Shown in pieces: positions 528 through 18,053 of a stretch of DNA of 64,000 nucleotides (position 1 is its first letter; every line of letters begins with the position of its first letter). Both the position numbers and the translations under genes were made by a program. The DNA is from an uncultured virus (IMG/VR IMGVR_UViG_3300043438_001628). Its lineage: Duplodnaviria; Heunggongvirae; Uroviricota; Caudoviricetes. A model generated the notes under the pieces. The model was not told the DNA's origin. It saw only the letters and a list, made by a program, of their open reading frames with translations, and searched no databases. The stretch is taken from the IMG/VR virus record IMGVR_UViG_3300043438_001628. One strand, written 5' to 3'.

Positions 528-532
528 TGTAT

Positions 533-563
533 TCTAACGTTTTATTAATTTTATCAGAGTTCC
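533..563 (-). promoter_or_regulatory. Motif A (GGAACTCTGA-TAAAAT) followed directly by motif B (TAATAAAACGTTAGA)
   Basis: Minus strand reads GGAACTCTGATAAAATTAATAAAACGTTAGA; both motifs recur elsewhere in the early region. Confidence 0.7.
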
Positions 564-887
564 TTACTTTTTAATCTTGAGCTTGGAGACATCAATTCCA
601 AGCTTATCAGCAATCTCATCAAGAGTCAAGACAATTTCTTTAGCAGTCCGCTTCTTGAATTCTTCTTCGGTGTATTCCAAGCCATTCAAATACCAAGCTT
701 TAGCGCCAGATTTCCATTCAACAGCAGGTCCATCATCACGGTGAAGTTTTCCATTCAACCACCAAGCTTTAGTACCACTATCATATTCAATGGCAGGCCC
801 ATCTTCACGATGAAGAATAGTCATCGCTTTATCTTTGAAATAATACTTAGTTCCAAATTTGTTGGTTAGAATGTGTTGAGGAGTCAT
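564..887 (-). CDS. LHREDGPA-repeat protein, 2 repeats (paralog 1)
   Basis: 23-aa LHRxDGPA repeats; shares N- and C-termini with 1966-2358 and 8415-8669. Confidence 0.85.
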   Translation of the reverse strand: MTPQHILTNKFGTKYYFKDKAMTILHREDGPAIEYDSGTKAWWLNGKLHRDDGPAVEWKSGAKAWYLNGLEYTEEEFKKRTAKEIVLTLDEIADKLGIDVSKLKIKK

Positions 888-915
888 GGTTGTAGTTTAG
901 TCTAACGTTTTATTA
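888..915 (-). promoter_or_regulatory. Motif B early promoter, -10 TAAACT 6 nt before ATG
   Basis: TAATAAAACGTTAGACTAAACTACAACC-ATG; identical at 8670-8697, near-identical at 2359-2384. Confidence 0.75.
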
Positions 916-1392
916 GTAAGAAAGCACATAAGCTCTCATTTCTCGTGGCAAAGGCTCAGTTGCTCCTTTAGGCAAATCACCAATATTAGTATACTTGTAG
1001 TTAAGTTTAGACATCGCTGCATTATACTCAGCCGCCAAACTATTATAACTAGCTACAACACCAGCTACCTCTTGTTCCCAAATATTGAATTGTTCCTTGT
1101 CTGGACGATCCCAATCAATACGAGCTACACCTTCATAATCCCGCTTAATCATAACCAAGCGAGACTTGTAAACTTCAATATCAGCAAGCTTCTTATCACA
1201 CTGTGCTGCTACATTCTTAAACCATTCATACCTCTTCAGAAGTAGAGCGGGATCAACTTGCTGTTCTGCTACAGCAGAGACCTTTCCGAGATAGGAGCAT
1301 CCCTTAGAAACAATAGAGAAGAAGAGAAGTCCAATAATAAAAGCAAGGATACAAGCGATGTATTTAATAATATTCATTTTAGTTTTGTTCAA
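913..1392 (-). CDS. Membrane-anchored hypothetical phage protein
   Basis: N-terminal hydrophobic helix then coiled region; overlaps the upstream lipoprotein gene. Confidence 0.75.
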   Translation of the reverse strand: MNKTKMNIIKYIACILAFIIGLLFFSIVSKGCSYLGKVSAVAEQQVDPALLLKRYEWFKNVAAQCDKKLADIEVYKSRLVMIKRDYEGVARIDWDRPDKEQFNIWEQEVAGVVASYNSLAAEYNAAMSKLNYKYTNIGDLPKGATEPLPREMRAYVLSY

Positions 1393-1930
1393 GGTTAATG
1401 GTGATATTCTTTACAGGCATTGGTTGATCTGCTACATGGATGATTTGACCACCTGTGAAGAAGTGACTGTGGTAAATTCCCTTGCTGTCAAACCAGTAGA
1501 TATATTCACATGAAGAACCATAAGTGCCATCGTCTTGTAGGACTTCGGAGGTCTTCTTTGTATAACCACCAATATCAACGCTCATACCAGTATGCATTGA
1601 TCCAATATGCTGACCCTCAATTGCCGCTACAGTTGTAGGAGTAAGACGCTTACCAGATGATGTAACCTTGCCACGAACGGTGGAATACATAATCACCTGA
1701 CCGCTGTATGGACTGATTACATATAGATGCTTGATAGCACCAACAATATTATCTCGTTCCAAACGCTCAGCGATATTTTTTTGTTCAACAGTCCAACCAT
1801 TGGCATCAGTAGCAACTTCAACGGTTTGCTTTGTTACTGTTCCACCAGCGGAAACAGGAGCGACATTTTCTTCAAGGCACGATGTCATCAATAGAGCTGA
1901 CACTACAGTCATTAGCATTTTTGTTTTCAT
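1379..1930 (-). CDS. Putative lipoprotein
   Basis: Signal peptide with lipobox LMTSC. Confidence 0.75.
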   Translation of the reverse strand: MKTKMLMTVVSALLMTSCLEENVAPVSAGGTVTKQTVEVATDANGWTVEQKNIAERLERDNIVGAIKHLYVISPYSGQVIMYSTVRGKVTSSGKRLTPTTVAAIEGQHIGSMHTGMSVDIGGYTKKTSEVLQDDGTYGSSCEYIYWFDSKGIYHSHFFTGGQIIHVADQPMPVKNITINLEQN

Positions 1931-1949
1931 TGTATTATTTTGTTTAGTA

Positions 1950-1965
1950 ATTTTATCAGTGTTCC
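1950..1965 (-). promoter_or_regulatory. Motif A early promoter
   Basis: GGAACACTGA-TAAAAT directly after the stop of 1966-2358. Confidence 0.7.
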
Positions 1966-2358
1966 TTACTTAGCGATCTTGAGCTTGCTCACATCAATTC
2001 CAAACTTATCAGCGATTTCATCCATTGTCAAGACGATTTCTTTAGCCGTCTCCTTCTTGAATTCTTCTTCGGTGTATTCTCTACCTTCAAGCCGCCATTC
2101 TTTATCACCGTCAGCGTATTCGACGGCAGGACCATCTTCACGATGAAGCTTATCGTTGAAATACCAAGCTTTATAACCCCACTTATCTTCGACAGCAGGA
2201 CCATCTTCACGATGAAGCTCATTGTTCAAATACCAACCTTTATAACCATTTGGATATTCAACAGCAGGTCCATCTTCACGATGAAGAATCGTCATTTCTT
2301 TGTCTTTGTAGTAATACTTGCTTCCGTTTTTGTTAATTAGAATGTATTGTGGAGTCAT
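1966..2358 (-). CDS. LHREDGPA-repeat protein, 3 repeats (paralog 2)
   Basis: Three 69-nt/23-aa repeats. Confidence 0.85.
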   Translation of the reverse strand: MTPQYILINKNGSKYYYKDKEMTILHREDGPAVEYPNGYKGWYLNNELHREDGPAVEDKWGYKAWYFNDKLHREDGPAVEYADGDKEWRLEGREYTEEEFKKETAKEIVLTMDEIADKFGIDVSKLKIAK

Positions 2359-2384
2359 GGTTGTAGTTTAGTCTAACGTTTTAT
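2359..2384 (-). promoter_or_regulatory. Motif B early promoter
   Basis: ATAAAACGTTAGACTAAACTACAACC-ATG; overlaps last codons of the phosphoesterase gene. Confidence 0.75.
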
Positions 2385-3069
2385 GATTACGATGTTCGAT
2401 GATTTGAAGTTCGTCAATGATTGTAGCTACGGTTCCATTGTGTTCAACTTGAGAATATAGATGGAAGTGTCCGTGATATGATCGCTTTGGCTTGCTCAGT
2501 TTCAGGAGTGTATCATGATCTTTTCGCTCTGTCAAGCATTCATCCCAAAGAGTTGGATCTTTTTCACACCAACTGGAAATGCCTTGCTTGTCAAATGGGC
2601 CAACCCAACTTGGAGCGCTGTGAGTAATCAAAACATCACACTCTTGAATTTTAGATTCGTCAAGAACAAAGGTTTCATCACGCCAGTAAGAAGATCCCTC
2701 TCTACGATAAAGACGATCAATACTAACAGCTCCTCCGACAAACAAAAACTTTTCACCGTTTAGTTCTCGAACGGTGTAATCATCCAGCAATTCAAAGTTT
2801 GAAAATGATGCTGATGAACCCTTTTTAAAATAAGAAGGATCATCGTGGTTGCCTCGAATGCTCATGAAATGAATGTTTCGATCCTGCATAAAAGCATTCA
2901 AATCTTTACATGCTTTGATTTCACCTTCTCTAGAGTAATTAAAGCCAATTCCAAGATCACCTACACAAATCAGGTAACAGTTCTCAATACCTCTTCGAAC
3001 GATATCCGAAAGCAGAGGTCGGAATTTACCGTGAATATCCCCCACGATTAGAATTTGTTTATCGGTCAT
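2368..3069 (-). CDS. Calcineurin-like metallophosphoesterase
   Basis: GDIHG, GDLG, GNHD, THS and GHFH motifs. Confidence 0.9.
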   Translation of the reverse strand: MTDKQILIVGDIHGKFRPLLSDIVRRGIENCYLICVGDLGIGFNYSREGEIKACKDLNAFMQDRNIHFMSIRGNHDDPSYFKKGSSASFSNFELLDDYTVRELNGEKFLFVGGAVSIDRLYRREGSSYWRDETFVLDESKIQECDVLITHSAPSWVGPFDKQGISSWCEKDPTLWDECLTERKDHDTLLKLSKPKRSYHGHFHLYSQVEHNGTVATIIDELQIIEHRNHKTLD

Positions 3070-3077
3070 TTTATAAA

Positions 3078-3671
3078 TTATATTTTAGTTCCTTTAGTTT
3101 TCTGATCACACAAATACTCAGCAAAGCGAATCATGCCATGAACAGCATCGTCCCCTCCATCAATATAAAAACGAAGACTTCCAAACTTACTTTTGACTTG
3201 AGCAATCTTAACTGGATCACATGCTGGAACCGTAACCCAAGCATCATTGGGGTAGATTGTTTTGTATGTAAAACGCTGTAAAACAGATTGAATTTTCGTT
3301 CTTTTTGATTGATTTATTTTCTTTTGAATATCAGGAGGGATAACACCATTCCAGCCACCCTTTGGACGATAGGGTCGATAAGGATCAGCAACGTCCATTA
3401 GAATATGATGAATCGGCTGCCAAATCCTCTTATGAAGAAAGTATTTGAAAAGTACAAAAGGTTTTTTTGTTTTAATACTCTTAGTTCCAGCAGTGTATTC
3501 TACAATTGAGCCACAAAGTGAATCAATAATATCTTCCCATTCTTCTAGACCACCGATTCCACATTCACTTGGAAGTGTGTTTCCTTCTTCGTCTTTATTA
3601 AAAAGAGAAGGATATTTTTCCATTAGGCGTTGTTCAAACCCGGTGTAGTTATTTTCCTGTAATGTTTTCAT
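3078..3671 (-). CDS. Hypothetical phage protein
   Basis: ORF with QVKSKFGSLRFY-type motif often seen in phage hypotheticals. Confidence 0.7.
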   Translation of the reverse strand: MKTLQENNYTGFEQRLMEKYPSLFNKDEEGNTLPSECGIGGLEEWEDIIDSLCGSIVEYTAGTKSIKTKKPFVLFKYFLHKRIWQPIHHILMDVADPYRPYRPKGGWNGVIPPDIQKKINQSKRTKIQSVLQRFTYKTIYPNDAWVTVPACDPVKIAQVKSKFGSLRFYIDGGDDAVHGMIRFAEYLCDQKTKGTKI

Positions 3672-4095
3672 TTAAAATATCGTCAAGTTTTTCTTTAATT
3701 ATATCAATTTTAACTACATATTCGTTACGAAGAGTCCACCATTTACGATGCCATTTTTCACGAAGTTTCAAAGCATCATCACGCTCAATTTGAGCACGAG
3801 CAGCCATATCAACAGCGCACTTCCACTTATTCTCCCAACCTTCGATTTGTCCTTTCAAATCGTCAACGGTGTTTTGGAGGGCAATGTTCTCTTCAGCGAA
3901 AACTTCATTTGCTTTTCTAAGAACTTCAAGATCTTTAGGAAGACATGGAAGCTTACTGAATTCTACTAAGCGATCACAATAATCAGATAGATGTTCATAG
4001 TCTTTATATTCTACATATCTACCGTTCTCACACGCCACGCCAAAAATGGTGTGAGAGATTGAGTCATATTCTACTTTATATCTTTTAATTTTCAT
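3649..4095 (-). CDS. Hypothetical coiled-coil protein (start trimmed to MKIKRY)
   Basis: ATG at 4095 lies just inside the 3' end of the upstream gene. Confidence 0.65.
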   Translation of the reverse strand: MKIKRYKVEYDSISHTIFGVACENGRYVEYKDYEHLSDYCDRLVEFSKLPCLPKDLEVLRKANEVFAEENIALQNTVDDLKGQIEGWENKWKCAVDMAARAQIERDDALKLREKWHRKWWTLRNEYVVKIDIIKEKLDDILNENITGK

Positions 4096-4771
4096 ACTCG
4101 CTTTCAATTTTATTGAGTTCGTTTTCCAACTGCTTTTTAATAAAAAGATGGGAATAGAGAGGTCCGTGACCATCTCCACCAAGAGTGTTGTGAGACACTA
4201 CTTCATTCTTTCCATTGAACCACGGTAGTCCTGAATCTCCCGGTATCATGATTATATCAGAGTTCTTTAAAGAAGCAATAGCAGCACCTTCACGAGTTAC
4301 AAGCCTACCCATGGAAATTAGAAATTCCTGATTTTGAACAGCGATCCATTCTTTTTCAATTGTCTCTGATGCAAGACCATACGCTCTTAAATTAGCGGGT
4401 GCTGGTCGATCCAATACCCCAATTGTAATGTCTCCAGCAAATAGATCATCAGGTTGCATTGGAGTTGGTTTACGATCTTTGATGACTTGGAAAATTGGAT
4501 ATCGTACATCCACAAGTTTAAAATTATGACGAACACCAGACATATCAACCATTGTTATTGGTGATCCAATCACAGGACCAGTGTGTGCTGAAACAACAAC
4601 AATACGACGAGATGGAGAGTTATACAACCATCCTTTTACTTCTCTTTCAGTACAAACACCAGATGTGTCCAAACGATGGAAATCAAGATGATTTGATCCG
4701 TATAGTAGTTTGTCAGACACTACACATGATAGCGTTAGTGCTGAGATGATTAGAATTAGTAGATGTTTCAT
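4085..4771 (-). CDS. Lipoprotein trypsin-like serine protease
   Basis: Lipobox LTLSC; triad motifs VSAH, GDI and GDSG in the correct order. Confidence 0.7.
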   Translation of the reverse strand: MKHLLILIISALTLSCVVSDKLLYGSNHLDFHRLDTSGVCTEREVKGWLYNSPSRRIVVVSAHTGPVIGSPITMVDMSGVRHNFKLVDVRYPIFQVIKDRKPTPMQPDDLFAGDITIGVLDRPAPANLRAYGLASETIEKEWIAVQNQEFLISMGRLVTREGAAIASLKNSDIIMIPGDSGLPWFNGKNEVVSHNTLGGDGHGPLYSHLFIKKQLENELNKIESEYEN

Positions 4772-5061
4772 TATTCAAAAATCCAAGTTTGAGTGTATAC
4801 ACTGTCTCCACATTGATCACATGGTTCGCTGCTGCTTTCCCAACTATCAGGTTGAAAACAACGAATGAGATCGTTCAGATGAACGGTGGATTCCTTCAAG
4901 CTCTTTTTAAATTCTTCACAAAGATAATCAACAATTTCATCAATCTCTTCATCAGGAAATCGAGTTGGTTCGTATTCTCCTCCGACAATCTTATCGTTGA
5001 TTTCTGTAAAGAAAGCCGTGCAGCCTTCGCTGATTGTGATAGTATATTTTGGTTTATTCAT
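4771..5061 (-). CDS. Hypothetical protein with C-terminal CxxC
   Basis: Tightly packed ORF. Confidence 0.65.
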   Translation of the reverse strand: MNKPKYTITISEGCTAFFTEINDKIVGGEYEPTRFPDEEIDEIVDYLCEEFKKSLKESTVHLNDLIRCFQPDSWESSSEPCDQCGDSVYTQTWIFE

Positions 5062-5062
5062 T

Positions 5063-5314
5063 TTAGTCCATCGGGATTAGTAATACAGCAGGTTCACCAT
5101 CAGGCACCAAGTCTTTGTCCGTGTATCCTAGCTCAATTTGGCGATCTGTCAAGCTCAGAAGTCCGATTTTTCCTGTTTTCTGATCGTAGGCACACTTGCC
5201 CCAAATACAACCGAGAGGAGAATGATCATCTTCTTTTTTAAAATATCGTCTACAAACAACAAGTGATTCTGGATCTTCTTTTTGAAGAAGTTCAATTAGA
5301 TTTTTTACTTTCAT
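5063..5314 (-). CDS. Hypothetical protein, tandem paralog of 5318-5572
   Basis: Identical N-terminus MKVKNLIELLQKEDPE. Confidence 0.75.
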   Translation of the reverse strand: MKVKNLIELLQKEDPESLVVCRRYFKKEDDHSPLGCIWGKCAYDQKTGKIGLLSLTDRQIELGYTDKDLVPDGEPAVLLIPMD

Positions 5315-5317
5315 GCC

Positions 5318-5572
5318 TTAGTTTATGGGTACCAGAAACAATGCCTTAACACCGTCTTCGATAACATCTTCTTCGCTGAATCCTAGTTTCCTGTCCTCTT
5401 CCGTTAATTCTTCAAGGCCAGCATAACCATACCATGTAGTTTCAGCTTTATATGATCCACTCCACATATCTGATAATGGTGAATATGAATTTCCTTCTGG
5501 ATCTTTTTGACAAACAATAAGTCGCTCTGGATCTTCTTTTTGAAGAAGTTCAATTAGATTCTTTACTTTCAT
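5318..5572 (-). CDS. Hypothetical protein, tandem paralog of 5063-5314
   Basis: Identical N-terminus, similar C-terminus. Confidence 0.75.
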   Translation of the reverse strand: MKVKNLIELLQKEDPERLIVCQKDPEGNSYSPLSDMWSGSYKAETTWYGYAGLEELTEEDRKLGFSEEDVIEDGVKALFLVPIN

Positions 5573-6113
5573 TTTCGTTGAATCGTTGAGTTAGAAACTT
5601 TTTAACATCTGATTCAAAAAGATCATCTGGATAATCCACACCGTAGTAGTCTCTCACATGTAGGTAGTTAGTATGATAATTATTTGGAATACCAATAAAG
5701 GACACCTTTCTCCAATTCTCTCTTGGAGGAAGATTATCAATCAACACATTATTCTTATGAGCATAGATGTGTGGATCAGTACTTTCATTAGATCCACCAT
5801 AGATTCCTGCCAGTTTAGTTGTGTGATATTCTAGATCTTCACGGGTGAAGATGTCTTCATTTTTAAATCCCCAACCTGCTTGACGATTTACTTCTTGAGC
5901 ATAGTCTCTAGTAGCTGTTGTAAGAATATGAACATTGTCTGCTCCGACCAGTTCACGAGAGAATTCAATCAAACGGTGACTACAAGGGCGGATGATAGTA
6001 TAGTACATTGAGAGATCATCTTCAAGAGCGAATGAAATGTGTTTTTGATCAGGCTCATGAAGACTTGTATGAATCAGAGTTTCGTCGATGTCCCAAAAAA
6101 TTTTATTTATCAT
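5550..6113 (-). CDS. HAD-superfamily (NIF/FCP1-like) phosphatase (start trimmed to MINKIF)
   Basis: WDIDETL DxD motif, RP, LTTAT and LIDN motifs. Confidence 0.75.
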   Translation of the reverse strand: MINKIFWDIDETLIHTSLHEPDQKHISFALEDDLSMYYTIIRPCSHRLIEFSRELVGADNVHILTTATRDYAQEVNRQAGWGFKNEDIFTREDLEYHTTKLAGIYGGSNESTDPHIYAHKNNVLIDNLPPRENWRKVSFIGIPNNYHTNYLHVRDYYGVDYPDDLFESDVKKFLTQRFNENESKESN

Positions 6114-6528
6114 GATCGTACACTGGTTTAAGAACCTTGGCAATTTCAATTTGACCCCAGCGGTTGGCACTGTGAATATAAACTGAAACTTTTGGATGTC
6201 CAGCTTCTTTCCACTTTTCTACAAAGTATTCAGCACAATGCTTTCCTGTTTTGTGCTTTAGTTTTTCGTATTCAATCACACCAGTTTGTGATGTGACATC
6301 GTGATAATGTCTGATGTGCTCGAAGTGTAAATCATGATCGAAACTAACAACAGATGGTACTCCAAACTTGTCAATCCACTCACAGAAATCTTCATAATTT
6401 CTCACGACATCCCAAGAGCTATTAGCAGTATTACTAGCATCTAGTAGATAGCGACCATCGTTATAAAGAAAACCATCTTTTGGTTTTCGGATGTCGTCAA
6501 GGAATAGTTTAAAATCGTTAGTTTTCAT
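6103..6528 (-). CDS. Cyclic-phosphate processing receiver-domain protein
   Basis: LFLDDIR, SFDHDL, TG and HSAN motifs. Confidence 0.75.
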   Translation of the reverse strand: MKTNDFKLFLDDIRKPKDGFLYNDGRYLLDASNTANSSWDVVRNYEDFCEWIDKFGVPSVVSFDHDLHFEHIRHYHDVTSQTGVIEYEKLKHKTGKHCAEYFVEKWKEAGHPKVSVYIHSANRWGQIEIAKVLKPVYDHDK

Positions 6529-6787
6529 GATTTGTAGGAAACGGAAGCATCACAGTCGATTGATTAAAACGGTTAAAAAAATCTGATCGTGAAATTGGAG
6601 TATCCATGGTTACATCATCATATCTCCAACCATCAGGATCAATGATTGTGTTTTCATTATATCCGAGTTCCTTCAACCAATCCCAAGCGCTTTGCTTTTT
6701 GAAAATATTATCCCAATTAGCTCTACCCTTTTCGGATAGAGCTTTTGATTTAATGTCATCACCAGTAATGTCGTTTTTAGCTGCCAT
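6518..6787 (-). CDS. Hypothetical phage protein
   Basis: KNDITGD...NWDNIF N-terminus common in phage hypotheticals. Confidence 0.7.
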   Translation of the reverse strand: MAAKNDITGDDIKSKALSEKGRANWDNIFKKQSAWDWLKELGYNENTIIDPDGWRYDDVTMDTPISRSDFFNRFNQSTVMLPFPTNHEN

Positions 6788-6795
6788 GTTATAAT

Positions 6796-7557
6796 TTATG
6801 CTCTGCTTTCTAGGATTATATCAGATGCCAGTTCAATGTCAAACTTAAATTTGATTTTGGATTTGTTGATAGCAATTTCAAGCTGTTCATAACGAGTCAT
6901 TACAACTTCAGTCAATTCTTCACAGGTGTACTTTTGTGGATTAGTTTTGACATCCATCAAATAATCATGTAATTTCCGATCATTGTTTACATTCACCATA
7001 TAAACTCCAGTGTCAAAGAAACGAATGCCAACTGAACACAGTCTAAAAATCTGAACGAAGTTTTTGGGACTGTATCCATATTTCAACACAGACTCCTTTC
7101 GTTTGCTTCCTAGCTGTCCAGATCTTTCTCCAGTGGCAAGTCTCATTTCACTGAAAACATAGCCCTTTAAACTAGCTTTCAATTTCTCACTGTCGATGAA
7201 ACTTTCACGATGTCCACGAATCTTATCAAACAGATCACTCTTATAAATAAAGCTTTCTTCAGGAGCGAACAGCATCTCCATCACCTGAGTATTGGTCTTA
7301 CGAAGCAGTTTCATGTAATGACCAATCTCATAAAAGGTAGCATCGATTTCATGTTCTTTATCAGGACACAGTACAACACTGTCCATGGTTTCGAAACCAG
7401 CAATGTACTTTTTATTCTGAGCGGTATAAATACCACGATAATCAACATCGCTTTCTGGAGTATTAAGACCGTACAGAGTGGAACCACCAATCATGTATGC
7501 TTCAAATTTTCCAGAGCAAGGCTTGAGATAAGTTTTTTCTATTTCTTTCAGGTCCAT
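6796..7557 (-). CDS. Pol-beta-superfamily nucleotidyltransferase (YcgL/RlaP-like)
   Basis: GGSTLYGLNTPESDVDYRG motif. Confidence 0.8.
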   Translation of the reverse strand: MDLKEIEKTYLKPCSGKFEAYMIGGSTLYGLNTPESDVDYRGIYTAQNKKYIAGFETMDSVVLCPDKEHEIDATFYEIGHYMKLLRKTNTQVMEMLFAPEESFIYKSDLFDKIRGHRESFIDSEKLKASLKGYVFSEMRLATGERSGQLGSKRKESVLKYGYSPKNFVQIFRLCSVGIRFFDTGVYMVNVNNDRKLHDYLMDVKTNPQKYTCEELTEVVMTRYEQLEIAINKSKIKFKFDIELASDIILESRA

Positions 7558-8392: not shown

Positions 8393-8397
8393 GTGTT

Positions 8398-8413
8398 ATT
8401 ATATTAGAGTTCC
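8398..8413 (-). promoter_or_regulatory. Motif A early promoter with perfect TATAAT
   Basis: GGAACTCTAA-TATAAT-AACAC-ATG. Confidence 0.75.
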
Positions 8414-8414
8414 T

Positions 8415-8669
8415 TTACTTCTTGATCTTGAGCTTAGAGACATCAACGCCAAGACGCTCAGCAATCTCATCCATGGTGAGAACAGTTTCCTTAGCAGTTC
8501 GCTTCTTGAATTCTTCTTCAGTGTATTCTACACCATTCAAATACCATTCATTATAACCATCAACATATTCATAAGCAGGACCATCTTCACGATGGCGAAT
8601 AGTCATCGCTTTGTCTTTATAGTAATGCTTAATTCCGTCTTCGTCGATTTTAATGTATTGTGGAGTCAT
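8415..8669 (-). CDS. LHREDGPA-repeat protein, 1 repeat (paralog 3)
   Basis: Same termini as paralogs 1 and 2. Confidence 0.85.
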   Translation of the reverse strand: MTPQYIKIDEDGIKHYYKDKAMTIRHREDGPAYEYVDGYNEWYLNGVEYTEEEFKKRTAKETVLTMDEIAERLGVDVSKLKIKK

Positions 8670-8697
8670 GGTTGTAGTTTAGTCTAACGTTTTATTA
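8670..8697 (-). promoter_or_regulatory. Motif B early promoter
   Basis: Identical to 888-915. Confidence 0.75.
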
Positions 8698-8699
8698 AT

Positions 8700-9689: not shown

Positions 9690-9694
9690 AATTT

Positions 9695-9736
9695 ATTTTA
9701 TCGGTGTTCCTTTGATTTTACTCTAACGTTTTATTA
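9695..9736 (-). promoter_or_regulatory. Tandem motif B + motif A with no gene between
   Basis: TAATAAAACGTTAGAG-TAAAAT-CAAA-GGAACACCGA-TAAAAT, then AAATT-ATG. Confidence 0.75.
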
Positions 9737-10440: not shown

Positions 10441-10672
10441 TTAAAATTTCAAAGCTGTGATAGTTAAAAAACGGAAGATCTCTTTCTTCGTCATAGATTG
10501 GAATTTCTTGTAGCCAGAGATATGTTCCTGAACTAGCAATTTCGACCTTTTCAACCGTATATTCTTTTCCAATCTCCAGAAGTTTTTGGTCTTCTACAAG
10601 ATTGTTGAACCAATGGTGGGTGATTGGTTTTACGAATTTTGCTTTAGTTCCTCTCAATGCTGCTGTTTTCAT
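10430..10672 (-). CDS. Hypothetical protein
   Basis: ATGA overlap with YopX stop. Confidence 0.7.
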   Translation of the reverse strand: MKTAALRGTKAKFVKPITHHWFNNLVEDQKLLEIGKEYTVEKVEIASSGTYLWLQEIPIYDEERDLPFFNYHSFEILNEN

Positions 10673-11091: not shown

Positions 11092-11296
11092 ATTCTATAC
11101 TTGATTTAATAATACAATAATGATTCAATTCATCTGCTACAATCTTCCATTGTGGACTCCAACGACACGATAGATAAACACTGCCATCCTCGTTTGGTGG
11201 AGGACTGTGACCTATTGATTGTTCTGGATCTAATTTCATCAAGCGGCAATATTCATACGCTGCTTTCTTTAGTTGCTCTGGTGTTAGTTTCATCAC
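11072..11296 (-). CDS. Hypothetical protein between YopX copies
   Basis: Overlaps both YopX neighbours. Confidence 0.65.
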   Translation of the reverse strand: MMKLTPEQLKKAAYEYCRLMKLDPEQSIGHSPPPNEDGSVYLSCRWSPQWKIVADELNHYCIIKSSIEYGLAED

Positions 11297-11649
11297 TTTA
11301 CGAGTTCAGGGTTTTCAAACACATTACCAGCAATTTCATAAAAGTCAAACCAATTTCCAGTGTTTCCTCCGTGCTCTTTAGTTGTTTTCCAAGCACCAGC
11401 TTCTTCATCCCATATAACCTCCCAATACAGCGGTCCTAATCCAATATCATGTTTGACGATATCCCCCTCGTAGATTTCCTTACCGTTTTTGTCTTTCAGA
11501 CCAGTAAATTGTTGAATCACTAAATTCTCCGCTTGATATTTAGAGGGGAAAAATTCAAAGATTTTACCATGAGCAGAACTAAAGACGGGAGCATAGGAAG
11601 TCCATTCTCGATCAGCTTTATCCCAAATTCTAAATTTTAGTTCTCTCAT
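11293..11649 (-). CDS. YopX-family protein (copy 5; start trimmed to MRELKF)
   Basis: Three YopX anchor motifs. Confidence 0.85.
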   Translation of the reverse strand: MRELKFRIWDKADREWTSYAPVFSSAHGKIFEFFPSKYQAENLVIQQFTGLKDKNGKEIYEGDIVKHDIGLGPLYWEVIWDEEAGAWKTTKEHGGNTGNWFDFYEIAGNVFENPELVK

Positions 11650-11911
11650 TGTATTCCTTTTCTTTTTGGTTATAGAGTTTTTTAAATTCCCTATCGTAAA
11701 CCTCTTCAAACTTATTTCTTAAATTATCAACATTACTCAATGGAGTATCATCATAACCAACTAATTGAAATTGAAGAACTGCCATTCGTTTTTTGTCAAA
11801 ATCTGCCAGTACACAATCCTTCATATATGACATCAAGCTCAGGATTCCCATAGAATCCATGTGTTTTGTTGCTTTGTCAAAAGCTTTTTGATTTTCAGAT
11901 TTTCGCTTCAT
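11630..11911 (-). CDS. Hypothetical protein between YopX copies
   Basis: ATGA overlap with YopX stop. Confidence 0.65.
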   Translation of the reverse strand: MKRKSENQKAFDKATKHMDSMGILSLMSYMKDCVLADFDKKRMAVLQFQLVGYDDTPLSNVDNLRNKFEEVYDREFKKLYNQKEKEYNERTKI

Positions 11912-12285
11912 TGCTTTAATAGTTCAGGGTTCTCAAAGATATTTCCAACAACTTCAAAATCTTTTATTAAATCTTTTAGTAGATTCAGCCAGCCGTCTTC
12001 GGTAGAAACGGAAGCAGCGAAACAACAACGAGCTTGATTCCATTTCACGGACATGATCAATCCATCTGAATTTTTTATATAATCCCCTTCGTAGATTTCC
12101 TTTCCGTTTTTGTCTTTCAGACCAGTGAATTGTTGGACAATAATGCATTCATCTGGTAAATCAGCAGATAAAGTAGACCACGGTGCTGGATGAATTTTTT
12201 TACCATCCATTTGAAGGTATTGAGAATCTTCACACCACCAACGTTTTATACCCTTATCCCAAATTCTAAACTTCAGTTCTCTCAT
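11908..12285 (-). CDS. YopX-family protein (copy 4)
   Basis: Three YopX anchor motifs. Confidence 0.85.
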   Translation of the reverse strand: MRELKFRIWDKGIKRWWCEDSQYLQMDGKKIHPAPWSTLSADLPDECIIVQQFTGLKDKNGKEIYEGDYIKNSDGLIMSVKWNQARCCFAASVSTEDGWLNLLKDLIKDFEVVGNIFENPELLKQ

Positions 12286-12641
12286 TGCTTTAATAGTTCG
12301 TTATTCTCAAAGATATTTCCAATGACCTCGACGCCAAAAGAAGAAAATAAATAGCCGGAACTATTTGTTTCATTATCTTCAATGTGAAATTTAACAGTGT
12401 GTAATTTACCGTTAAATAGCCTGAGAATATCACCCTCGTAAATTTCTTTACCATTCTTATCCTTTAATCCAGTATATTGTTGGATTTTTCCATCAGCAGA
12501 CCACAATTTTTCATGTGATGAAAATGTACCACCGTAATCTTGTTCATAATCCCATAAACTCCCATCAGAAGTTTTGATATATGTATCAGGAATTGTGACA
12601 AAACAGCATCCATTCCAAATTCTAAATTTCAGTTCTCTCAT
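12282..12641 (-). CDS. YopX-family protein (copy 3)
   Basis: Three YopX anchor motifs. Confidence 0.85.
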   Translation of the reverse strand: MRELKFRIWNGCCFVTIPDTYIKTSDGSLWDYEQDYGGTFSSHEKLWSADGKIQQYTGLKDKNGKEIYEGDILRLFNGKLHTVKFHIEDNETNSSGYLFSSFGVEVIGNIFENNELLKQ

Positions 12642-13000
12642 TGCTTTAATAGTTCGGAGTTCTTAAAGATATTTCCAACAACTGCATTCTCAAAAATCCA
12701 CCCTTTAAAACTTGTAGTGACATTTCCAGATTTTTCTCTCAATCTCCAAGCAGAATCATTTTCATACCAAATAACTTCTCTAATAAACCCCTCTGGAGAT
12801 CTTAAAATATCACCTTCATAGATTTCTTCTCCGTTTTTGTCTTTTAGACCAGTGAATTGTTGAAGAATAAATGATTTCTCTTCTTCAGCCGATAAAGGAT
12901 CATCGCTGCCGTGAATTGCAGAAAGTATATTACCAGCAACAATTTCATAGTCAAACTCTTCTTCATCTACACACCACACTCTAAATTTTATTTCTCTCAT
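12638..13000 (-). CDS. YopX-family protein (copy 2)
   Basis: Three YopX anchor motifs. Confidence 0.85.
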   Translation of the reverse strand: MREIKFRVWCVDEEEFDYEIVAGNILSAIHGSDDPLSAEEEKSFILQQFTGLKDKNGEEIYEGDILRSPEGFIREVIWYENDSAWRLREKSGNVTTSFKGWIFENAVVGNIFKNSELLKQ

Positions 13001-13416
13001 TGCTTTGATAGTTCAGGGGTTTCAAAAACATTTCCAATTACTTCACAGTACCCTCTTATTACAATCCAGAAATAAGCATCACTGATATCATCATCGTGTT
13101 CCCTAAACACAAACCATGCATTGTCCTGATCCCATTCACAAATGAAAATTTTATCAACAGCTTCTTCGAGATAAGAGTCTCCATCGAATGTATATTTTAC
13201 AATATCACCCTCATAAATTTCCTTACCGTTTTTGTCTTTTAGACCAGTGTATTGTTGAGCGACGATGAATGACTTTTCAATATCAAATGGATCATCCCAT
13301 GCCATCATGTCATAATCATAACCTATACACTGACCATCCCCTTGAATAGCATACTTACTCGCTGGTTGAAATTTGTGTGCTAGTGTATTCCAAAATCTAA
13401 ATTTAAGAGGTCTCAT
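12997..13416 (-). CDS. YopX-family protein (copy 1)
   Basis: Three YopX anchor motifs; first gene after motif B. Confidence 0.85.
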   Translation of the reverse strand: MRPLKFRFWNTLAHKFQPASKYAIQGDGQCIGYDYDMMAWDDPFDIEKSFIVAQQYTGLKDKNGKEIYEGDIVKYTFDGDSYLEEAVDKIFICEWDQDNAWFVFREHDDDISDAYFWIVIRGYCEVIGNVFETPELSKQ

Positions 13417-13445
13417 GGTTTGTATTCTAGTCTAACGTTTTATTA
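13417..13445 (-). promoter_or_regulatory. Motif B early promoter
   Basis: TAATAAAACGTTAGAC-TAGAAT-ACAAACC-ATG. Confidence 0.75.
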
Positions 13446-13661
13446 ATTAATCTTTACTGTTTGCTTACCTAATGATTCTACCACTGTTCCATTACAAATC
13501 AAGCGATATTCAAAACGCTGATTGTAATGAGATTTTAACATGGCCCATGCTCCTTCAGCAAATGATTTCCTCATACAACAAAACCCAATCAGCCGTTGCC
13601 ATTTATCGATTGGAGGTGGTATGTAGAACTCAATGTCGTATAGTTTTGGAGCGCTCATCAA
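13443..13661 (-). CDS. Hypothetical protein
   Basis: Packed ORF; stop lies within motif B. Confidence 0.65.
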   Translation of the reverse strand: MMSAPKLYDIEFYIPPPIDKWQRLIGFCCMRKSFAEGAWAMLKSHYNQRFEYRLICNGTVVESLGKQTVKIN

Positions 13662-14026
13662 TAATCCCGTTCATCAAAAGATTTTTTTGCTTCAAAAGCT
13701 CGCTTACACTTTTTGATAATGTCAGGCCAATAGAGTCCACACTCGGAGTCATTATCCTTCAGAACTTCTTCTACAGCACCACTCAATTGCTCAATAACAA
13801 CATCTTTACTAAGCTCAACATCTGTTTGAAGTTCTACTGCTCTATCACAGAAGTCTCTGCACAATACATGATCTAGCTCATTCCTCATAATATAATGTAA
13901 TTCGATGGGATTGTATTTTGAGGTATTGTTATTCTCCATCCATTCCTCTATAGCTTTACGAAATGAATCGGAAAGATCATTTCCATCTTCAGTGAACGCT
14001 AATTGTTTTGTGTATAGTGCTTTCAT
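13658..14026 (-). CDS. Hypothetical protein
   Basis: Packed ORF. Confidence 0.65.
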   Translation of the reverse strand: MKALYTKQLAFTEDGNDLSDSFRKAIEEWMENNNTSKYNPIELHYIMRNELDHVLCRDFCDRAVELQTDVELSKDVVIEQLSGAVEEVLKDNDSECGLYWPDIIKKCKRAFEAKKSFDERDY

Positions 14027-14030
14027 ATTA

Positions 14031-14168
14031 TTAAATGTGTGTGATTATGTGATAAACTGTCCAGCCTATTATGCTCATTATCCCTCCCCCAAACACAAGA
14101 ATGTATAAGACAGCGAAAAGAATGTTTAATCGTTTTTCTGTCTTTTCTGAAAGATCAGGACCGTACAT
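14031..14168 (-). CDS. Small membrane protein (45 aa, not in ORF track)
   Basis: MYGPDLSEKTEKRLNILFAVLYILVFGGG... Confidence 0.55.
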   Translation of the reverse strand: MYGPDLSEKTEKRLNILFAVLYILVFGGGIMSIIGWTVYHIITHI

Positions 14169-14170
14169 AA

Positions 14171-14326
14171 TTAAAAAAAGTTAAGATACAGTTGAGCGAG
14201 AAAAGCAACAGCGTTTAGCGTAGCAAGCCCCAAATCAAGCTTCAGTCTATCTCGTCCATAAAAGTAGAAAAACATGAAGGCAAAAAGCAGGTTGATAAAA
14301 GGTAGCGTTAGTAAAAATAGGTTCAT
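14171..14326 (-). CDS. Small membrane protein (start trimmed to MNLFLL)
   Basis: Hydrophobic 51-aa ORF. Confidence 0.55.
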   Translation of the reverse strand: MNLFLLTLPFINLLFAFMFFYFYGRDRLKLDLGLATLNAVAFLAQLYLNFF

Positions 14327-14336
14327 ATTATTATTA

Positions 14337-14723
14337 TTATTCGTTGTCGTTGATTCCACAGCTCTTGCATTGATCCCATAATAGATGAGTTCCTTGCCAA
14401 TCTCCAACTTTTAGGTAGTGACAGTATCCGTTGTTTTGTTTAGGAAAGTCAAGGATCTTATCCCAAAATGGACAAGTTTTAGTTCTTAAGAATCCGTCAT
14501 ATTTGCTATGTTCATCAGCGATTCTAGTGTAGCAGTAACCACCTTCAGGAATCAAGGCGGCACACTGTTCTTGTGTGAGTTCCGCTTGATTCAAGCCTTG
14601 GGTGCCTTCTTCCATTTCGTCGAATTGAGAGATCCTTTCGAAGATTGTATTCTCTTCCACTCCAATGTCAAGGAGTTCTTTTTTTGTAGCGTATGTATAG
14701 TAAATGTCAGTTTCCATATCCAA
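14337..14723 (-). CDS. Cys-rich hypothetical protein
   Basis: IPEGGYCY...CPFW...GYCHYL...LLWDQCKSCG. Confidence 0.7.
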   Translation of the reverse strand: MDMETDIYYTYATKKELLDIGVEENTIFERISQFDEMEEGTQGLNQAELTQEQCAALIPEGGYCYTRIADEHSKYDGFLRTKTCPFWDKILDFPKQNNGYCHYLKVGDWQGTHLLWDQCKSCGINDNE

Positions 14724-15042
14724 GTTCTTTTATAAAGTCAATTAGTTGTTTTTGACCTTCGTGAGAGTCTAATAGGTCCTGTGGTTTTGCTCCATCGAAG
14801 TTTGGGTTTGGAATTTCCATCCACATGTCATCATCGATGAATATAGCGAGTATAGCTAAGATTACCTCTTTGTCAATCTGTAAATGTGCTGATTCTGTGA
14901 GCATTTGCTCTCCAAAATTATCATACACATCAACCATGATCGTTTTGATGAATACAGCATCCAATGCTTTTCCAGTTTGGGGACAAGCTTTTTTTGCTGG
15001 TAGGTATACATCAAAGGGGGCTTTGTAGATTTTTCTTTTCAT
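14707..15042 (-). CDS. Protein with C-terminal Xre/MbcA/ParS (DUF2384)-like antitoxin domain
   Basis: WMEIPNPNFDGAKPQDLLDSHEG resembles the W..PN...G..P..LL....G pattern. Confidence 0.55.
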   Translation of the reverse strand: MKRKIYKAPFDVYLPAKKACPQTGKALDAVFIKTIMVDVYDNFGEQMLTESAHLQIDKEVILAILAIFIDDDMWMEIPNPNFDGAKPQDLLDSHEGQKQLIDFIKELGYGN

Positions 15043-15208
15043 TTAAATATAAAATTTTAAAGCTTTTCCAATTTAAATATTCAATAAAACGCAAACGCCC
15101 CTCTTCATCTGTTACAATTCTTCTATCCCATCCCCCACTTATAAAGTATATTTTATTTCTATAAGAAATAAGACTTCCATTCGGTGGCCAAATAATATTA
15201 GCTTTCAT
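15011..15208 (-). CDS. Hypothetical protein
   Basis: Packed ORF. Confidence 0.5.
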   Translation of the reverse strand: MKANIIWPPNGSLISYRNKIYFISGGWDRRIVTDEEGRLRFIEYLNWKSFKILYLNEKKNLQSPL

Positions 15209-15593
15209 ACTTTTCTTTCAGTTTTGCTAAAAGAGCAAGCTCAGAGTCAATTTCTTCTTGAGCTTTTTTACGCTTCTTTTTTTCCTGTTTTTGCTTTTCG
15301 AGAATATCCTTCTCAAGCTGTTTTTGATGTTGAGCTAGTCGTTCGTAGTAAACACTATCAGTTTCAAGTCGCTCACCGTAAATACTGATTTTGTATGGAG
15401 CATCCCAACCACCCCAACCAAACTTTAGTTGAATGTTACTAAACCCTTCTTTGGTGAATTTTTCTTCTTGCTTTTGTAAGAAAGAAATAACTTCGGAAAG
15501 CTTGGTAGCGTCAAAGCATGTTCCAATATGAAGTAATTCTTCCTCAATTAATTGTCGTTCTGTGAAGTCGGCTTGTTTAGTCTTTTTTTTCAT
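15198..15593 (-). CDS. Hypothetical protein (start trimmed to MKKKTK)
   Basis: C-terminal LAKLKEKYE; similar ending to 16038-16382. Confidence 0.65.
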   Translation of the reverse strand: MKKKTKQADFTERQLIEEELLHIGTCFDATKLSEVISFLQKQEEKFTKEGFSNIQLKFGWGGWDAPYKISIYGERLETDSVYYERLAQHQKQLEKDILEKQKQEKKKRKKAQEEIDSELALLAKLKEKYES

Positions 15594-15819
15594 CGTGGTT
15601 TTGATTGAATCGAGGATGTAGAGGCATCTTAAGTTTAGCAAATCCCAATTTATTGATTATACTCTCAACTGTCTGTTCTGGATAGGAGTTTAACTCTTTT
15701 ATAACATCAATGGCTTGTGGTGTTGAGATATCACCGTTTTCTAATCTCAAAGAGATTTCATTCGCTAAGTTTAGTGAAAGCGACACCTCTTCAATATACT
15801 GTTTCAGTTTACTGTTCAT
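15577..15819 (-). CDS. Hypothetical protein
   Basis: Packed ORF. Confidence 0.55.
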   Translation of the reverse strand: MNSKLKQYIEEVSLSLNLANEISLRLENGDISTPQAIDVIKELNSYPEQTVESIINKLGFAKLKMPLHPRFNQNHDEKKD

Positions 15820-16060
15820 CACAATCTTTAATCTCAAATCCCCATGGGGAAAAATTACTCTTTGTATCTTCTTCCAACTTAATCAATCGAAACATACCAT
15901 CATGCTTGGCAAAGCCGTGAAGCTCTACCCAAGCCTTAAATGATACTCCCCAACCTGTGGTTCCAAGAGTAATACTTTTACAATATTCAGCAATCAAACA
16001 CCGAACTTGATATTCAGTGAAATCACCGTAATCGACTTTACGTTCTGGTTTGTCCGTCAT
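15809..16060 (-). CDS. Hypothetical protein
   Basis: Packed ORF. Confidence 0.6.
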   Translation of the reverse strand: MTDKPERKVDYGDFTEYQVRCLIAEYCKSITLGTTGWGVSFKAWVELHGFAKHDGMFRLIKLEEDTKSNFSPWGFEIKDCDEQ

Positions 16061-16382
16061 ATTTTTCCTTTAATCTAGCAAGTTCTTTTAGTTCACGCTC
16101 TCGTAGGGTATTATCAATTCTTTCGTTAGCGATACGATCCAGTTCAAGTTCCTCTGGAGTCTTTGGAATCCAACCACTAATGTCAATATCACCATCTCCA
16201 GTATAAACATCAACCATAGTTTTAACTACCCCTGCTTTCTTGGCAGCTTCATTGAGTTTAGTGAAATATTCAATCAATTCATCAAGAGTTTCCCCACGCC
16301 CCCAACAGCCATATTCCTGTTGAAAATCTGGAAGATATTCTAGTCTTACTCGTTTGTGTGTTCTGTAGTCGATTGAATCCAT
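16038..16382 (-). CDS. Hypothetical protein
   Basis: Follows motif A; ELARLKEKYD ending. Confidence 0.7.
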   Translation of the reverse strand: MDSIDYRTHKRVRLEYLPDFQQEYGCWGRGETLDELIEYFTKLNEAAKKAGVVKTMVDVYTGDGDIDISGWIPKTPEELELDRIANERIDNTLRERELKELARLKEKYDGQTRT

Positions 16383-16387
16383 AGTTT

Positions 16388-16403
16388 ATTTTATCAGAGT
16401 TCC
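16388..16403 (-). promoter_or_regulatory. Motif A early promoter
   Basis: GGAACTCTGA-TAAAAT-AAACT-ATG. Confidence 0.75.
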
Positions 16404-16735
16404 TAGAGAAGTGGAAGTTCTTTAAGGATCGCATGTAGTTTTGGACTGATGTGTTCACAACGTCTGATCTTAGGAGTACCTTCACCGCGACCAGTGTAAC
16501 GTGCTTCAATTTCGATTCCCCAGTAATAGCAGCGCTTATGAGCCCAAATATGAAAATTGCATTCTCCTTCAGGATTATAGTAACTGCGCAGCGGATGAAC
16601 GATGTCCTTGCTGTTTAGTATGTATCCAGTCGGAAGCGTATCAATGATGCGTGGAGAGATGAAGTCCTTAGGTTCATATTCTTTTAGATGTTCGGCAATA
16701 ATTTTGTTAACCTCATCGGCATCTTCTTCATTCAT
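16403..16735 (-). CDS. Hypothetical protein
   Basis: ATGA overlap with pth2 stop. Confidence 0.65.
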   Translation of the reverse strand: MNEEDADEVNKIIAEHLKEYEPKDFISPRIIDTLPTGYILNSKDIVHPLRSYYNPEGECNFHIWAHKRCYYWGIEIEARYTGRGEGTPKIRRCEHISPKLHAILKELPLL

Positions 16736-17151
16736 AGTAATGGTAGATGGTCAGTAATTCCTTCAAACTTTTCTTCTGAGTGTGGTCCGATGGCACAGCA
16801 GGTCTTGGTTTTCACACCGTTGAATTCAGTTGCTCCGTTGTCTTCGATCATATGAGAAATCAGTCCAGAGTCAAGAGCTTTTTGATGAACTGCTTCAAGT
16901 TCCTCTTCGCTGTTGACATATACACAGATCTTACGAAATGAATTACGAAGCCAGTGATTAATTTCTTCAGTAAATGCAAGACAGGCAAAAAAACAAGGAT
17001 CTCCTTGTGAATCTATTGTCTGTGATATTGAAAAATTTTTAGTTATAAATGCCATGCTGGCGTGTGCGACTTGACTACAATATTTTCCAGTCCTAAGACT
17101 TGGGAATTTTCTTACTACAATTACCATCTTTGTATTTTTTTCTTCCTGCAT
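16732..17151 (-). CDS. pth2: Peptidyl-tRNA hydrolase, Pth2 family
   Basis: KMVIVVRK...GKYCSQVAHAS...KICVYV...IEDNGATEF...TCCAIGP. Confidence 0.85.
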   Translation of the reverse strand: MQEEKNTKMVIVVRKFPSLRTGKYCSQVAHASMAFITKNFSISQTIDSQGDPCFFACLAFTEEINHWLRNSFRKICVYVNSEEELEAVHQKALDSGLISHMIEDNGATEFNGVKTKTCCAIGPHSEEKFEGITDHLPLL

Positions 17152-17977
17152 ATATTTTTATATCCTTTAAAAATCTTTTAATTACGTGTTTACTATACCC
17201 AGATTCTTGTAAAATTTCTGGAACTATTTTTCCATATGTTTTATATAAACGAATTATTAATTCCTGCGATTCGATATCAACCTCAACATAATTATTATTT
17301 TTTGATCCAAGTTTAGCATCTCGCATTCTTTGTAGACCAGCTTCACTAATGTTCACACGTTTTCCGTTTACTAATTTATTTTTATGCGTTGTGGACATTT
17401 TAGATTTAATTTGTTCTGCTTTTTCGTTATATTTCTCATCATATGACATTTTCAACCATTCTTTATGATTCTGATCATTATGTAATTCTTTAGCGCATCT
17501 AGATAAACCCGCCTTTAATTCTATTGCCTTTTCCACGCCATACAATTCTTCGTATGTTTTTCCACATCTAGATTTATTAATTTCGGAAATTTTATTGTAA
17601 TGATCTTCTGATAATGGACCTTTTGCAATTCCTTTAGTTGCGTTGGATATTTTAGTTTTAGTCTCTTCTGTATGTTTGTAACCAACTGTGCCATCACCTC
17701 CAATCGTCATATTATAACCATTAGTGAAGGCATTGTATTTTTCAATATACTCTATCTCTTTAGAATTCAAAATTGCAAAGTCACACACGCTGTCTTCTAT
17801 AATTTCCCATGTAAAATTATCCCATCCATATTTTCTAATAGATCTGTAAAAATAATTCGGAAGATTTTTTGTAAGAGCGTTGTGCTTATGAACACTCTTT
17901 CTTTTTTGAAGAGTTTGAGATGTTATTCCAATGTAATGTTTTTTTGTAATGATATTAGTGCATAAGTAAACAATCAT
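17093..17977 (-). mobile_element. Free-standing GIY-YIG homing endonuclease with NUMOD3-like segments
   Basis: IVYLCTN...YIGIT...R...E...GYNMTIGGDG and HTEETKTKIS. Confidence 0.85.
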
Positions 17978-17981
17978 ATGA

Positions 17982-18023
17982 TTATTTATCCTTTCGCATT
18001 ACAATTACTTGCTTCGTGTTCAT
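17982..18023 (-). pseudogene. Orphaned original 5' end of pth2 (MNTKQVIVMRKDK*)
   Basis: Homologous to NTKMVIVVRK of 16732-17151; sits directly behind a motif B promoter. Confidence 0.75.
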
Positions 18024-18031
18024 CTGCGTCT

Positions 18032-18053
18032 ATTCTAGTTTAACGTTTTATTA
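18032..18053 (-). promoter_or_regulatory. Motif B early promoter
   Basis: TAATAAAACGTTAAAC-TAGAAT-8 nt-ATG. Confidence 0.7.

Follow-up and report, generated by a model that had tools for sequence, protein, structure and literature searches.

The present analysis concerns a 64,000-nucleotide stretch of DNA (hereafter the window, W; all positions refer to the whole of it) from an uncultured virus (IMG/VR record IMGVR_UViG_3300043438_001628), a freshwater myovirus of the T4 superfamily. In its early region, where genes lie mostly on the minus strand, two short motifs termed B and A recur among small genes. We propose that B and A are probably two separate classes of promoters of the early/middle region, devoid of a -35 box and yielding leaderless mRNAs, which double as passive crossover points in the exchange of genes. 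This proposal builds on the conserved structure of both motifs, on their spacing to the start codon, and on hybrid motif copies at the ends of insertions in related genomes.

Structure and distribution of motifs B and A

Motif B (TAATAAAACGTTARA, up to two mismatches allowed) matches the window 8 times, whereas 100 shuffles gave 0.99 matches on average and never more than 3. Seven matches are considered true sites, all of them on the minus strand and hence on the strand of the genes. The eighth, at position 49315 with 2 mismatches, was rejected, and a weight matrix trained on 40 sites of two related contigs does not find it. This matrix recovers exactly the 7 sites with scores of 26–34 bits, and no other position on either strand reaches 12 bits. 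The initial annotation, made from the letters alone, had placed B at seven positions and A at five; all twelve are found on the minus strand, the B sites by pattern scan as well as by the matrix, and the -10 boxes (TAAACT/TAGAAT/TAAAAT in B, TAAAAT/TATAAT in A) are as described.

Relatives were picked from IMG/VR by exact-pattern scans (contigs G1/G001, G2/G002, G3, G4/G004, G5/G005, G7/G007, G14/G014 and G15/G015; only the short forms are used below). Their genome size, as implied by CheckV completeness, is about 200 kb. Across 7 contigs, the gene strand carries 110 copies of AAAACGTT and the opposite strand 7. Counts of B sites in forward/reverse orientation are 13/0 in G1, 1/17 in G2, 0/10 in G4, 0/20 in G5 and 0/11 in G14, with 0 for a reversed control pattern. 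About 100 distinct B contexts exist in the 7 contigs, located before unrelated genes, and similarity among them is limited to about 25 nt. There is no conservation upstream of about -30, while the B core is invariant among contigs that are otherwise 65–75% identical or share no identity at all.

This spread of contexts already contradicts the view that the repeats are mere traces of recent segment duplication, functionless and without any role in exchange. Copies of one gene do account for three of the window's 7 B and three of its 5 A sites, and the closeness of rearrangement junctions to motifs is accounted for by a gene-start null model (see below), which would both be expected of duplication traces. 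Against them stand the brevity of the shared sequence in so many settings, the invariance of the core between diverged contigs, the position of B next to tRNA genes in relatives, and the hybrid motifs at the ends of insertions and deletions (indels), which together leave this explanation hardly credible. As for the tRNA genes (Ser, Leu, Met), they end a few nucleotides before B at L130 14792–14865, L133 4183–4255 and 5551–5641, and L174 2739–4116; G2 and G5 differ in carrying one versus two tRNA-Met genes at that place.

The anatomy of B is strict. Among 37 sites selected by the core alone, 35 continue with one base and then TAnnnT, the pattern of a sigma-70-type -10 box. An ATG opening an open reading frame (ORF) lies exactly 13 nt past the core in 23/37 and 13–15 nt past it in 27/37, so that the distance from -10 box to ATG is 6 nt. 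C occupies position -1, immediately in front of the ATG, at 33 of 40 B sites, and +1 is A. The block specific for this class, AATAAAACGTTAGA, extends from about -27 to -14 and abuts the -10 box. Stop codons are frequent within the motif: among 88 B sites of 6 contigs, 56 contain stops in all three frames and all 88 in at least two. The earlier statement that upstream stop codons usually fall in or next to the motif is borne out in part: a long upstream frame ends inside B in 31/88, and within 60 nt upstream in 44/88.

Motif A was originally described by the pattern GGAACWCYRA, which has 6 exact matches in the window. Five are on the minus strand (563, 1965, 8413, 9710 and 16403); the sixth, on the plus strand at 31759, lacks a -10 box and was discarded. 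Once the -10 box is included in the search (GGAAC-N5-TAnnnT, or a matrix), further A-like sites emerge on the gene strand at 3092, 6671 and 4266, the last being an AGAAC variant. The consensus reads GGAACwCTGATAwAAT, followed by 4–8 bases and the ATG; the block GGAACwCTGA is located at about -22 to -13, and most copies display the TG of an extended -10 box. Forward/reverse counts of A are 5/0 in G15, 5/0 in G7, 0/12 in G14 and 0/4 in G5, with a control count of 0. Both the 7 B sites and the listed A sites are confined to positions 533–18053, among small and mostly unannotated genes, with none in 20–64 kb.

Predicted leaderless promoters

In sigma-70 promoters, transcription usually starts some six bases downstream of the -10 box. 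In B, the ATG stands 6 nt behind the -10 box, in A 4–8 nt; the predicted transcription start thus coincides with the A of the ATG or lies beside it, which would make the mRNAs leaderless. In the proposed mechanism, a sigma-70-type -10 box (TAnnnT), directly preceded by the class-specific block, would drive each following gene. A start at or beside the A of the ATG would fit the near-absence of Shine-Dalgarno (SD) sequences: only 14 of the 86 called genes have SD-like words in front, chiefly AAGG or AGGA, and G makes up 5–11% at most positions from -12 to -3. It would also fit the layout of the late genes. The hexamer TAAATA occurs 24 times in the window at 4–8 nt before the ATG or GTG start of an ORF with 60 or more amino acids, compared to 3–12 times for control hexamers of the same composition. 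Of these late-type boxes, 23 are in 20–64 kb (on both strands), and one is at 17977 before a homing-endonuclease gene. Because of this TAAATA-N4-8-ATG layout, late genes appear leaderless as well. The box resembles the T4 late box as quoted in one report (PMC9004378). B, A and the late box probably represent three promoter classes, each starting its message at or beside the AUG.

The suggestion in the initial annotation that the motifs are promoter-like thus gains support from the -10 box and the fixed ATG spacing, and its remark that neither a stem-loop nor a canonical -35 box is visible was borne out. Where a -35 box would be expected, 90/100 B sites and 41/45 A sites agree with TTGACA in no more than 3 of 6 bases. 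At 58 B sites, folding-energy z-scores average -0.69 in the 60 nt upstream and +0.14 in the stretch across the motif, with values below -2 at 7/58 and 1/58, respectively. A scan for terminator-like sites yields 13, compared to 9.9 ± 2.8 in shuffled sequence, and none at a motif. A conventional sigma-70 promoter scan remains at chance level (76 versus 67 ± 7.8).

Two candidates for host-type early promoters with a leader were observed in the region. Positions 6815–6842 (minus strand) hold a perfect TTGACA-16-TG-TATAAT (12/12), located 27 nt before gene 6518–6787, and positions 9828–9855 hold an 11/12 match to the same sequence.

As an alternative, the motifs could act as RNA, i.e. as signals for translation initiation or mRNA processing in a host that does without SD pairing, on polycistronic transcripts made from other promoters. 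A fixed ATG distance would be expected of such signals, and the A-rich, G-poor surroundings with SD nearly absent throughout are compatible with them; the consensus promoter at 6842–6815 and the 11/12 match at 9855–9828 could drive the long transcripts. However, the variable part of the motifs follows the exact -10 pattern, T, A and T being fixed and the inner bases free, and the bases around the predicted start are C at -1 and A at +1. B and A are wholly different in sequence, yet share the same spacing from -10 box to ATG and substitute for one another. A T4-type late box stands at the same distance before late genes, and most operon-internal genes carry neither motif. We therefore regard an action as RNA as unlikely. 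Other sigma and promoter types were considered in addition. The -7 box of Bacteroidota-type promoters, TAnnTTTG, is not enriched in the window (8 on the gene strand versus 13 expected). An archaeal reading of B as TATA box with a TFIIB recognition element (BRE) was dropped in view of the bacterial or T4 character of A and the late box. The same applies to GGAAC as -35 element of an extracytoplasmic function (ECF) sigma factor, for which the -10 box 16–17 nt further on would fall inside the ORF.

That B and A replace each other is seen in one orthologous gene, which is preceded by B in G1 (22223) where G2 (2002) has A, with homologous flanks and equal distance to the ATG. Both motifs do not occur in matched numbers: G1 has 19 B-type sites and 7 A, G5 has 20 and 4, B is likewise in excess in G2, and the 82 kb of G15 contain 5 A and 0 B. 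Because of this A-only contig, the excess of B elsewhere and the replacement of one by the other, B and A are best described as independent and interchangeable, and not as the ends of one element.

Some observations speak against the interpretation of B and A as leaderless promoters. In the window, 3 of 7 B sites (18053, 9736 and 547) have no abutting ATG, and two A-like sites (6671 and 4266) lie within ORFs. A Pfam search of 75 window proteins displays no factor able to read the B block. Moreover, none of the datasets listed as containing positions 500–10400 is an RNA run, so that promoter activity and start site are inferred.

Considerably more tentative is a wider picture, in which the B block might be the site of an undescribed phage promoter-specificity factor (a MotA/AsiA analogue or a phage sigma factor) in lake myoviruses of about 200 kb. 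In these phages, most mRNAs of the early, middle and late classes would start at the AUG and be translated without SD pairing, and a unit of B, a repeat-containing gene and A (see below) could spread as a promoter-flanked mini-circle by A-A or B-B exchange.

Modules and gene exchange in the early region

The intervals 915–563, 2386–1965 and 8697–8413 are copies of one gene, encoding 107, 130 and 84 amino acids, respectively. Each product consists of a fixed N-terminal part, one to three repeats of 23 residues (WYLNG..HREDGPA; up to four in relatives), which we take to be MORN-like, and a fixed C-terminal tail. The window has 3 such copies, and 21 are found across 6 contigs. The 21 units resemble each other from the 5′ edge of B as far as the -10 box of A; B is located upstream in 17/19 copies, and TAA-GGAAC follows directly after the gene in 15/21. 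G14 carries the module about 8 times in differing contexts. Searches of Pfam and PHROGs return sub-threshold matches only (DUF6745, wHTH domain), and metagenomes contain more than 7,800 homologues, all unnamed, including an identical copy of the paralogue on a contig of 129.7 kb.

The initial annotation had read the whole region as a series of cassettes, in which B opens a segment and drives its cargo, and every A closes a segment and re-supplies a promoter to the genes behind it. If such two-ended mobile cassettes were dedicated elements, a recombinase or activator would act on their asymmetric ends. The three one-gene units with sharp ends at B and A, the varied contexts of the module in G14, and the promoter-like element that A offers to the next gene are what this idea predicts. 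The cassette picture is indeed correct for the MORN-like family, and for this family alone: the apparent B..A pairing in the window arises mainly from a module repeated three times. Three of the five B..A pairs are such modules. The remaining two are no cassettes, as the pair 18053..16403 spans the homing-endonuclease gene, a PTH2 gene and a gene absent from wild variants, and the pair 9736-9710 is a predicted tandem double promoter. Other B and A sites are unpaired. Strict alternation is lost because the A-like sites 6671, 4266 and 3092 follow the A at 8413; with these, the order in transcription direction becomes B, A, B, B-A, B, A, A, A, A, B, A, B, A-B. The excess of B in G1, G2 and G5 and the presence of A only in G15 speak against the pairing, and at one site B and A are exchanged for each other (see above). 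Indels that can be located are flanked by B-B, by A-A or by two paralogue copies, not by B and A. Finally, the search for a recombinase or a MotA-like activator that had been recommended returns none in the window (75 proteins against Pfam, 81 against PHROGs). As a general rule the two-ended cassette is largely refuted, and we consider dedicated elements of this kind very unlikely.

Comparison with relatives displays how genes come and go at single motif classes. The closest relative to the early region of the window is G14 (identity 82–93%). In place of the B(9736)-A(9710) of the window, G14 displays B, a gene for 304 amino acids, B and A, and the window at this point consists of the left flank of the first B joined to the right flank of the second. 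The window copy is an in-register B-B hybrid with a 22-nt overlap and an insert of 930 nt in G14. G2 and G5, which are 88–98% identical, differ by a block of 1309 nt between two B copies, with a 27-nt overlap and the crossover inside an identical stretch of 18 nt, and by a second block of 421 nt between two B copies, with a 57-nt overlap. Further differences between relatives fall between two paralogue copies, are tandem duplications, or are found without any repeat.

The window stretch is present in many lake-water metagenomes, and joints of lake variants were read from assembled metagenome contigs. These include a 1297-nt deletion flanked by A-A (8395>9693) and wild variants without gene 16403–16735, the joint being at the 5′ edge of A. 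Lake contigs also diverge exactly at the B edges 533 and 9736 and at the A edges 1947/1948, 1968 and 8396, some of these cases being weak due to short sides or repeats. The joints 818>13423, 2145>8567, 2358>9715 and 8698>9717 were set aside as cross-mapping, as they have sides of 20–28 nt or lie within paralogues or B copies.

The motifs probably serve as in-register crossover points for homologous recombination because they are near-identical, co-oriented, and carry the stop codons of upstream genes. Genes would then be gained, lost or re-promoted at B-B or A-A pairs. Gene content in the hyperplastic early region changes between relatives precisely at copies of the motifs, in agreement with the shuffling foreseen in the initial annotation, which had drawn the analogy to the promoter-early stem-loops (PeSLs) of T4-type phages. 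The proposed alignment of relatives bears this out for some indels only; overall, junctions lie no closer to motifs than gene starts predict. Of 25 junctions from three pairs of genomes, 14 are within 10 nt of a motif, compared to 3.4 ± 1.8 for random positions.

With regard to a role of the motifs in exchange, the following findings count as objections. A null model that draws positions from gene starts gives 16.1 ± 2.2 junctions near motifs (P = 0.87), i.e. no enrichment, and 11/25 junctions have no motif within 10 nt. The motifs may mark the ends of indels merely through sitting at gene starts. Several metagenome joints have short sides (20–28 nt) or are located in repeats, and may be effects of mapping or assembly. 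Junction proximity alone proves nothing, because the gene-start null matches it; what supports motif-guided exchange are the hybrid motifs that are in register.

The sites are described in the following in the order of transcription, all on the minus strand and, unless stated otherwise, located by pattern and matrix. The first B (18039..18053) is a GTTAAA variant with the -10 box TAGAAT. The next long ORF begins 61 nt past it and is the gene of a GIY-YIG/NUMOD3 homing endonuclease (17093–17977), with the TAAATA late-type box 5 nt before its ATG. The A at 16388..16403 overlaps the stop codon of gene 16403–16735, and the ATG of gene 16038–16382 follows 5 nt after the -10 box. The B at 13431..13445, again with TAGAAT, is followed 14 nt past the core by the ATG at 13416, the first of a run of YopX paralogues. 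At 9722..9736, B is fused to the A at 9695..9710 (GGAAC..TAAAAT) in the predicted tandem B-A double promoter; the ATG at 9689 is 5 nt past the -10 box.

The B at 8683..8697 forms the 5′ end of a module, with the ATG at 8669 located 13 nt past the core. By paralogue alignment, as for the other two copies, the gene 8415..8669 encodes the MORN-like protein of 84 amino acids with one repeat unit. Right behind its stop codon stands the A at 8398..8413, the predicted promoter of gene 8000–8392, whose ATG is 5 nt past the -10 box. The three A-like sites that follow were found with the -10 box included in the search and were absent from the initial annotation: GGAACTCGGATATAAT at 6656..6671 within ORF 6518–6787, conserved in G14; the variant AGAACTCTGATATAAT at 4251..4266 within ORF 4085–4771; and GGAACTAAAATATAAT at 3077..3092 before a metallophosphoesterase gene (2368–3069).

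The second module begins with the B at 2372..2386, a TCAT variant with 1 mismatch. Its ATG at 2358 lies 13 nt past the core and opens the gene 1966..2358 (130 amino acids, three repeat units), and the A at 1950..1965 follows right behind the stop codon, upstream of gene 1379–1930 with a predicted leader of about 20 nt. In the third, the B at 901..915 precedes the ATG at 887, likewise 13 nt past the core, the gene 564..887 (107 amino acids, two repeat units), and the A at 548..563 right behind its stop, which is fused to the last B (533..547) as a tandem A-B. Beyond this B there is just a 3-codon ORF and, on the opposite strand, a LAGLIDADG-like ORF (42–527, plus strand) with a Pfam match below the cut-off. 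Lake contigs that diverge at 533 go on with a -10 box and an ATG gene start. In G14, an opposite-strand gene for 302 amino acids is located at the place that matches the LAGLIDADG-like ORF.

The assignment of the phage to the T4 superfamily is based on T4-type structural and replication genes. PHROGs matches in 20–64 kb comprise a T4-type large terminase (TerL), tail sheath, two tube proteins, baseplate wedge, tail fibres and a clamp loader, the latter including the Gp44 lid domain according to Pfam. TerL displays 31–36% identity to T4-like phages of rhizobia, cyanobacteria and pseudomonads. The G+C content of the window is about 36%, and it contains 0 tRNA genes. Megablast of positions 1–20000 against cultured phages returns one match of 54 nt, which is chance-like. 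Positions 1–20 kb comprise about 45 small minus-strand genes, the majority without annotation; among them are six YopX paralogues, the GIY-YIG homing endonuclease, PTH2, an RlaP-type nucleotidyltransferase and the metallophosphoesterase.

Other observations concern neighbouring genes. The six YopX-family paralogues form an array at 10669–13416 (minus strand); one lake variant lacks one unit (joint 12271>12628, 29-nt overlap), and other lake contigs contain a joint that goes back by 573 nt. At 5063–5572 (minus strand) there is a tandem pair of genes for about 84 amino acids each (MKVKNLIE...), one unit of which is missing in contigs of two runs (joint 5266>5525). An NIF-type phosphatase, a cREC_REC domain protein and the RlaP-type nucleotidyltransferase form an RNA-repair-like cluster at 5550–7557 (minus strand), and the PTH2-type peptidyl-tRNA hydrolase is encoded at 16732–17151 (minus strand). 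In the tail region, a protein encoded at 60958–62016 (plus strand) has an Mtd_N domain (N-terminus of the major tropism determinant), which could mark the target of a diversity-generating retroelement. In G1 (L130/L131, about 21358–22221 in oriented coordinates) and G2 (L132/L133), one gene contains internal tandem repeats of about 63 nt, whose number varies among G1, G2 and G3.

Comparison with known systems

In a search of the literature, none of the papers returned reports such leaderless cassettes for T4-like phages, those on PeSLs being the nearest. If the interpretation proposed here holds, gene expression in a whole lineage of T4-like phages abundant in fresh water relies on promoters that are welded to the start codon and need no ribosome-binding site, and these units of about 25 nt are reused as joints for gene swapping. 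This would constitute a compact and portable "stop-promoter-start" module, extending the PeSL idea to a form without terminator and -35 box, and would point to a factor that reads the B block. Gene callers that expect a ribosome-binding site will then misplace starts in such phages. The motifs further provide a key for finding relatives and for mapping their variable regions.

In T4 middle promoters, a MotA box replaces the -35 element and is combined with a sigma-70 -10 box; they depend on MotA and AsiA. B and A are similar to these in placing a phage-specific block upstream of TAnnnT instead of a -35 box, in occurring in tandem with a second promoter class, and in their use in non-late genes. 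The MotA box is quoted as a sequence of the type TGCTTtA (PMC9004378), and the AsiA switch has been described (PMC4124052). Unlike the MotA box, the B block abuts the -10 box (-27 to -14) rather than being centred near -30, and it is unrelated to TGCTTtA. No members of the MotA or AsiA families are detected among 75 window proteins with Pfam or 81 with PHROGs, the window being part of a genome of perhaps 200 kb.

Leaderless genes with an ORF-adjacent -10 box are reported for Deinococcus-Thermus (PMC12340547), and -35-less extended -10 promoters for the Thermus phage P23-45 (PMC4124052). As outlined in these reports, the similarities are a -10 box a few nucleotides before the start codon, no need for a -35 box, and, in most A sites, the TG of the extended -10. 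Differences are the long invariant upstream block of B, or the GGAAC of A, that is added here, and the setting in a T4-superfamily phage from lake water.

The closest known system are the PeSLs. These are described as early sigma-70 promoters joined to a stem-loop terminator and an SD sequence in the hyperplastic regions of T4-type phages, where recombination between them inserts, deletes and circularises genes (Arbiol et al. 2010, PMC2839356; Comeau et al. 2014, PMC4122927). Judged by what these papers describe of them, B and A share with PeSLs that near-identical promoter repeats populate a variable early region, chiefly before small genes of unknown function, that the stop codon of the upstream gene lies in or beside the repeat, and that the repeat supplies its own (here predicted) promoter to whatever follows. 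Relatives likewise differ by genes between two copies of the repeat, with one chimeric copy in the other genome. In contrast to PeSLs as portrayed there, B and A have no stem-loop or terminator, no -35 box and no SD sequence, and the start codon coincides with the predicted +1. PeSLs have a conserved block of about 100 nt, which here is about 25 nt long; moreover, there are two motif classes, unrelated to each other, that are in places fused in tandem. Thus, by the comparison of these features, B and A appear as a PeSL-like variant without stem-loop, -35 box or ribosome-binding site.

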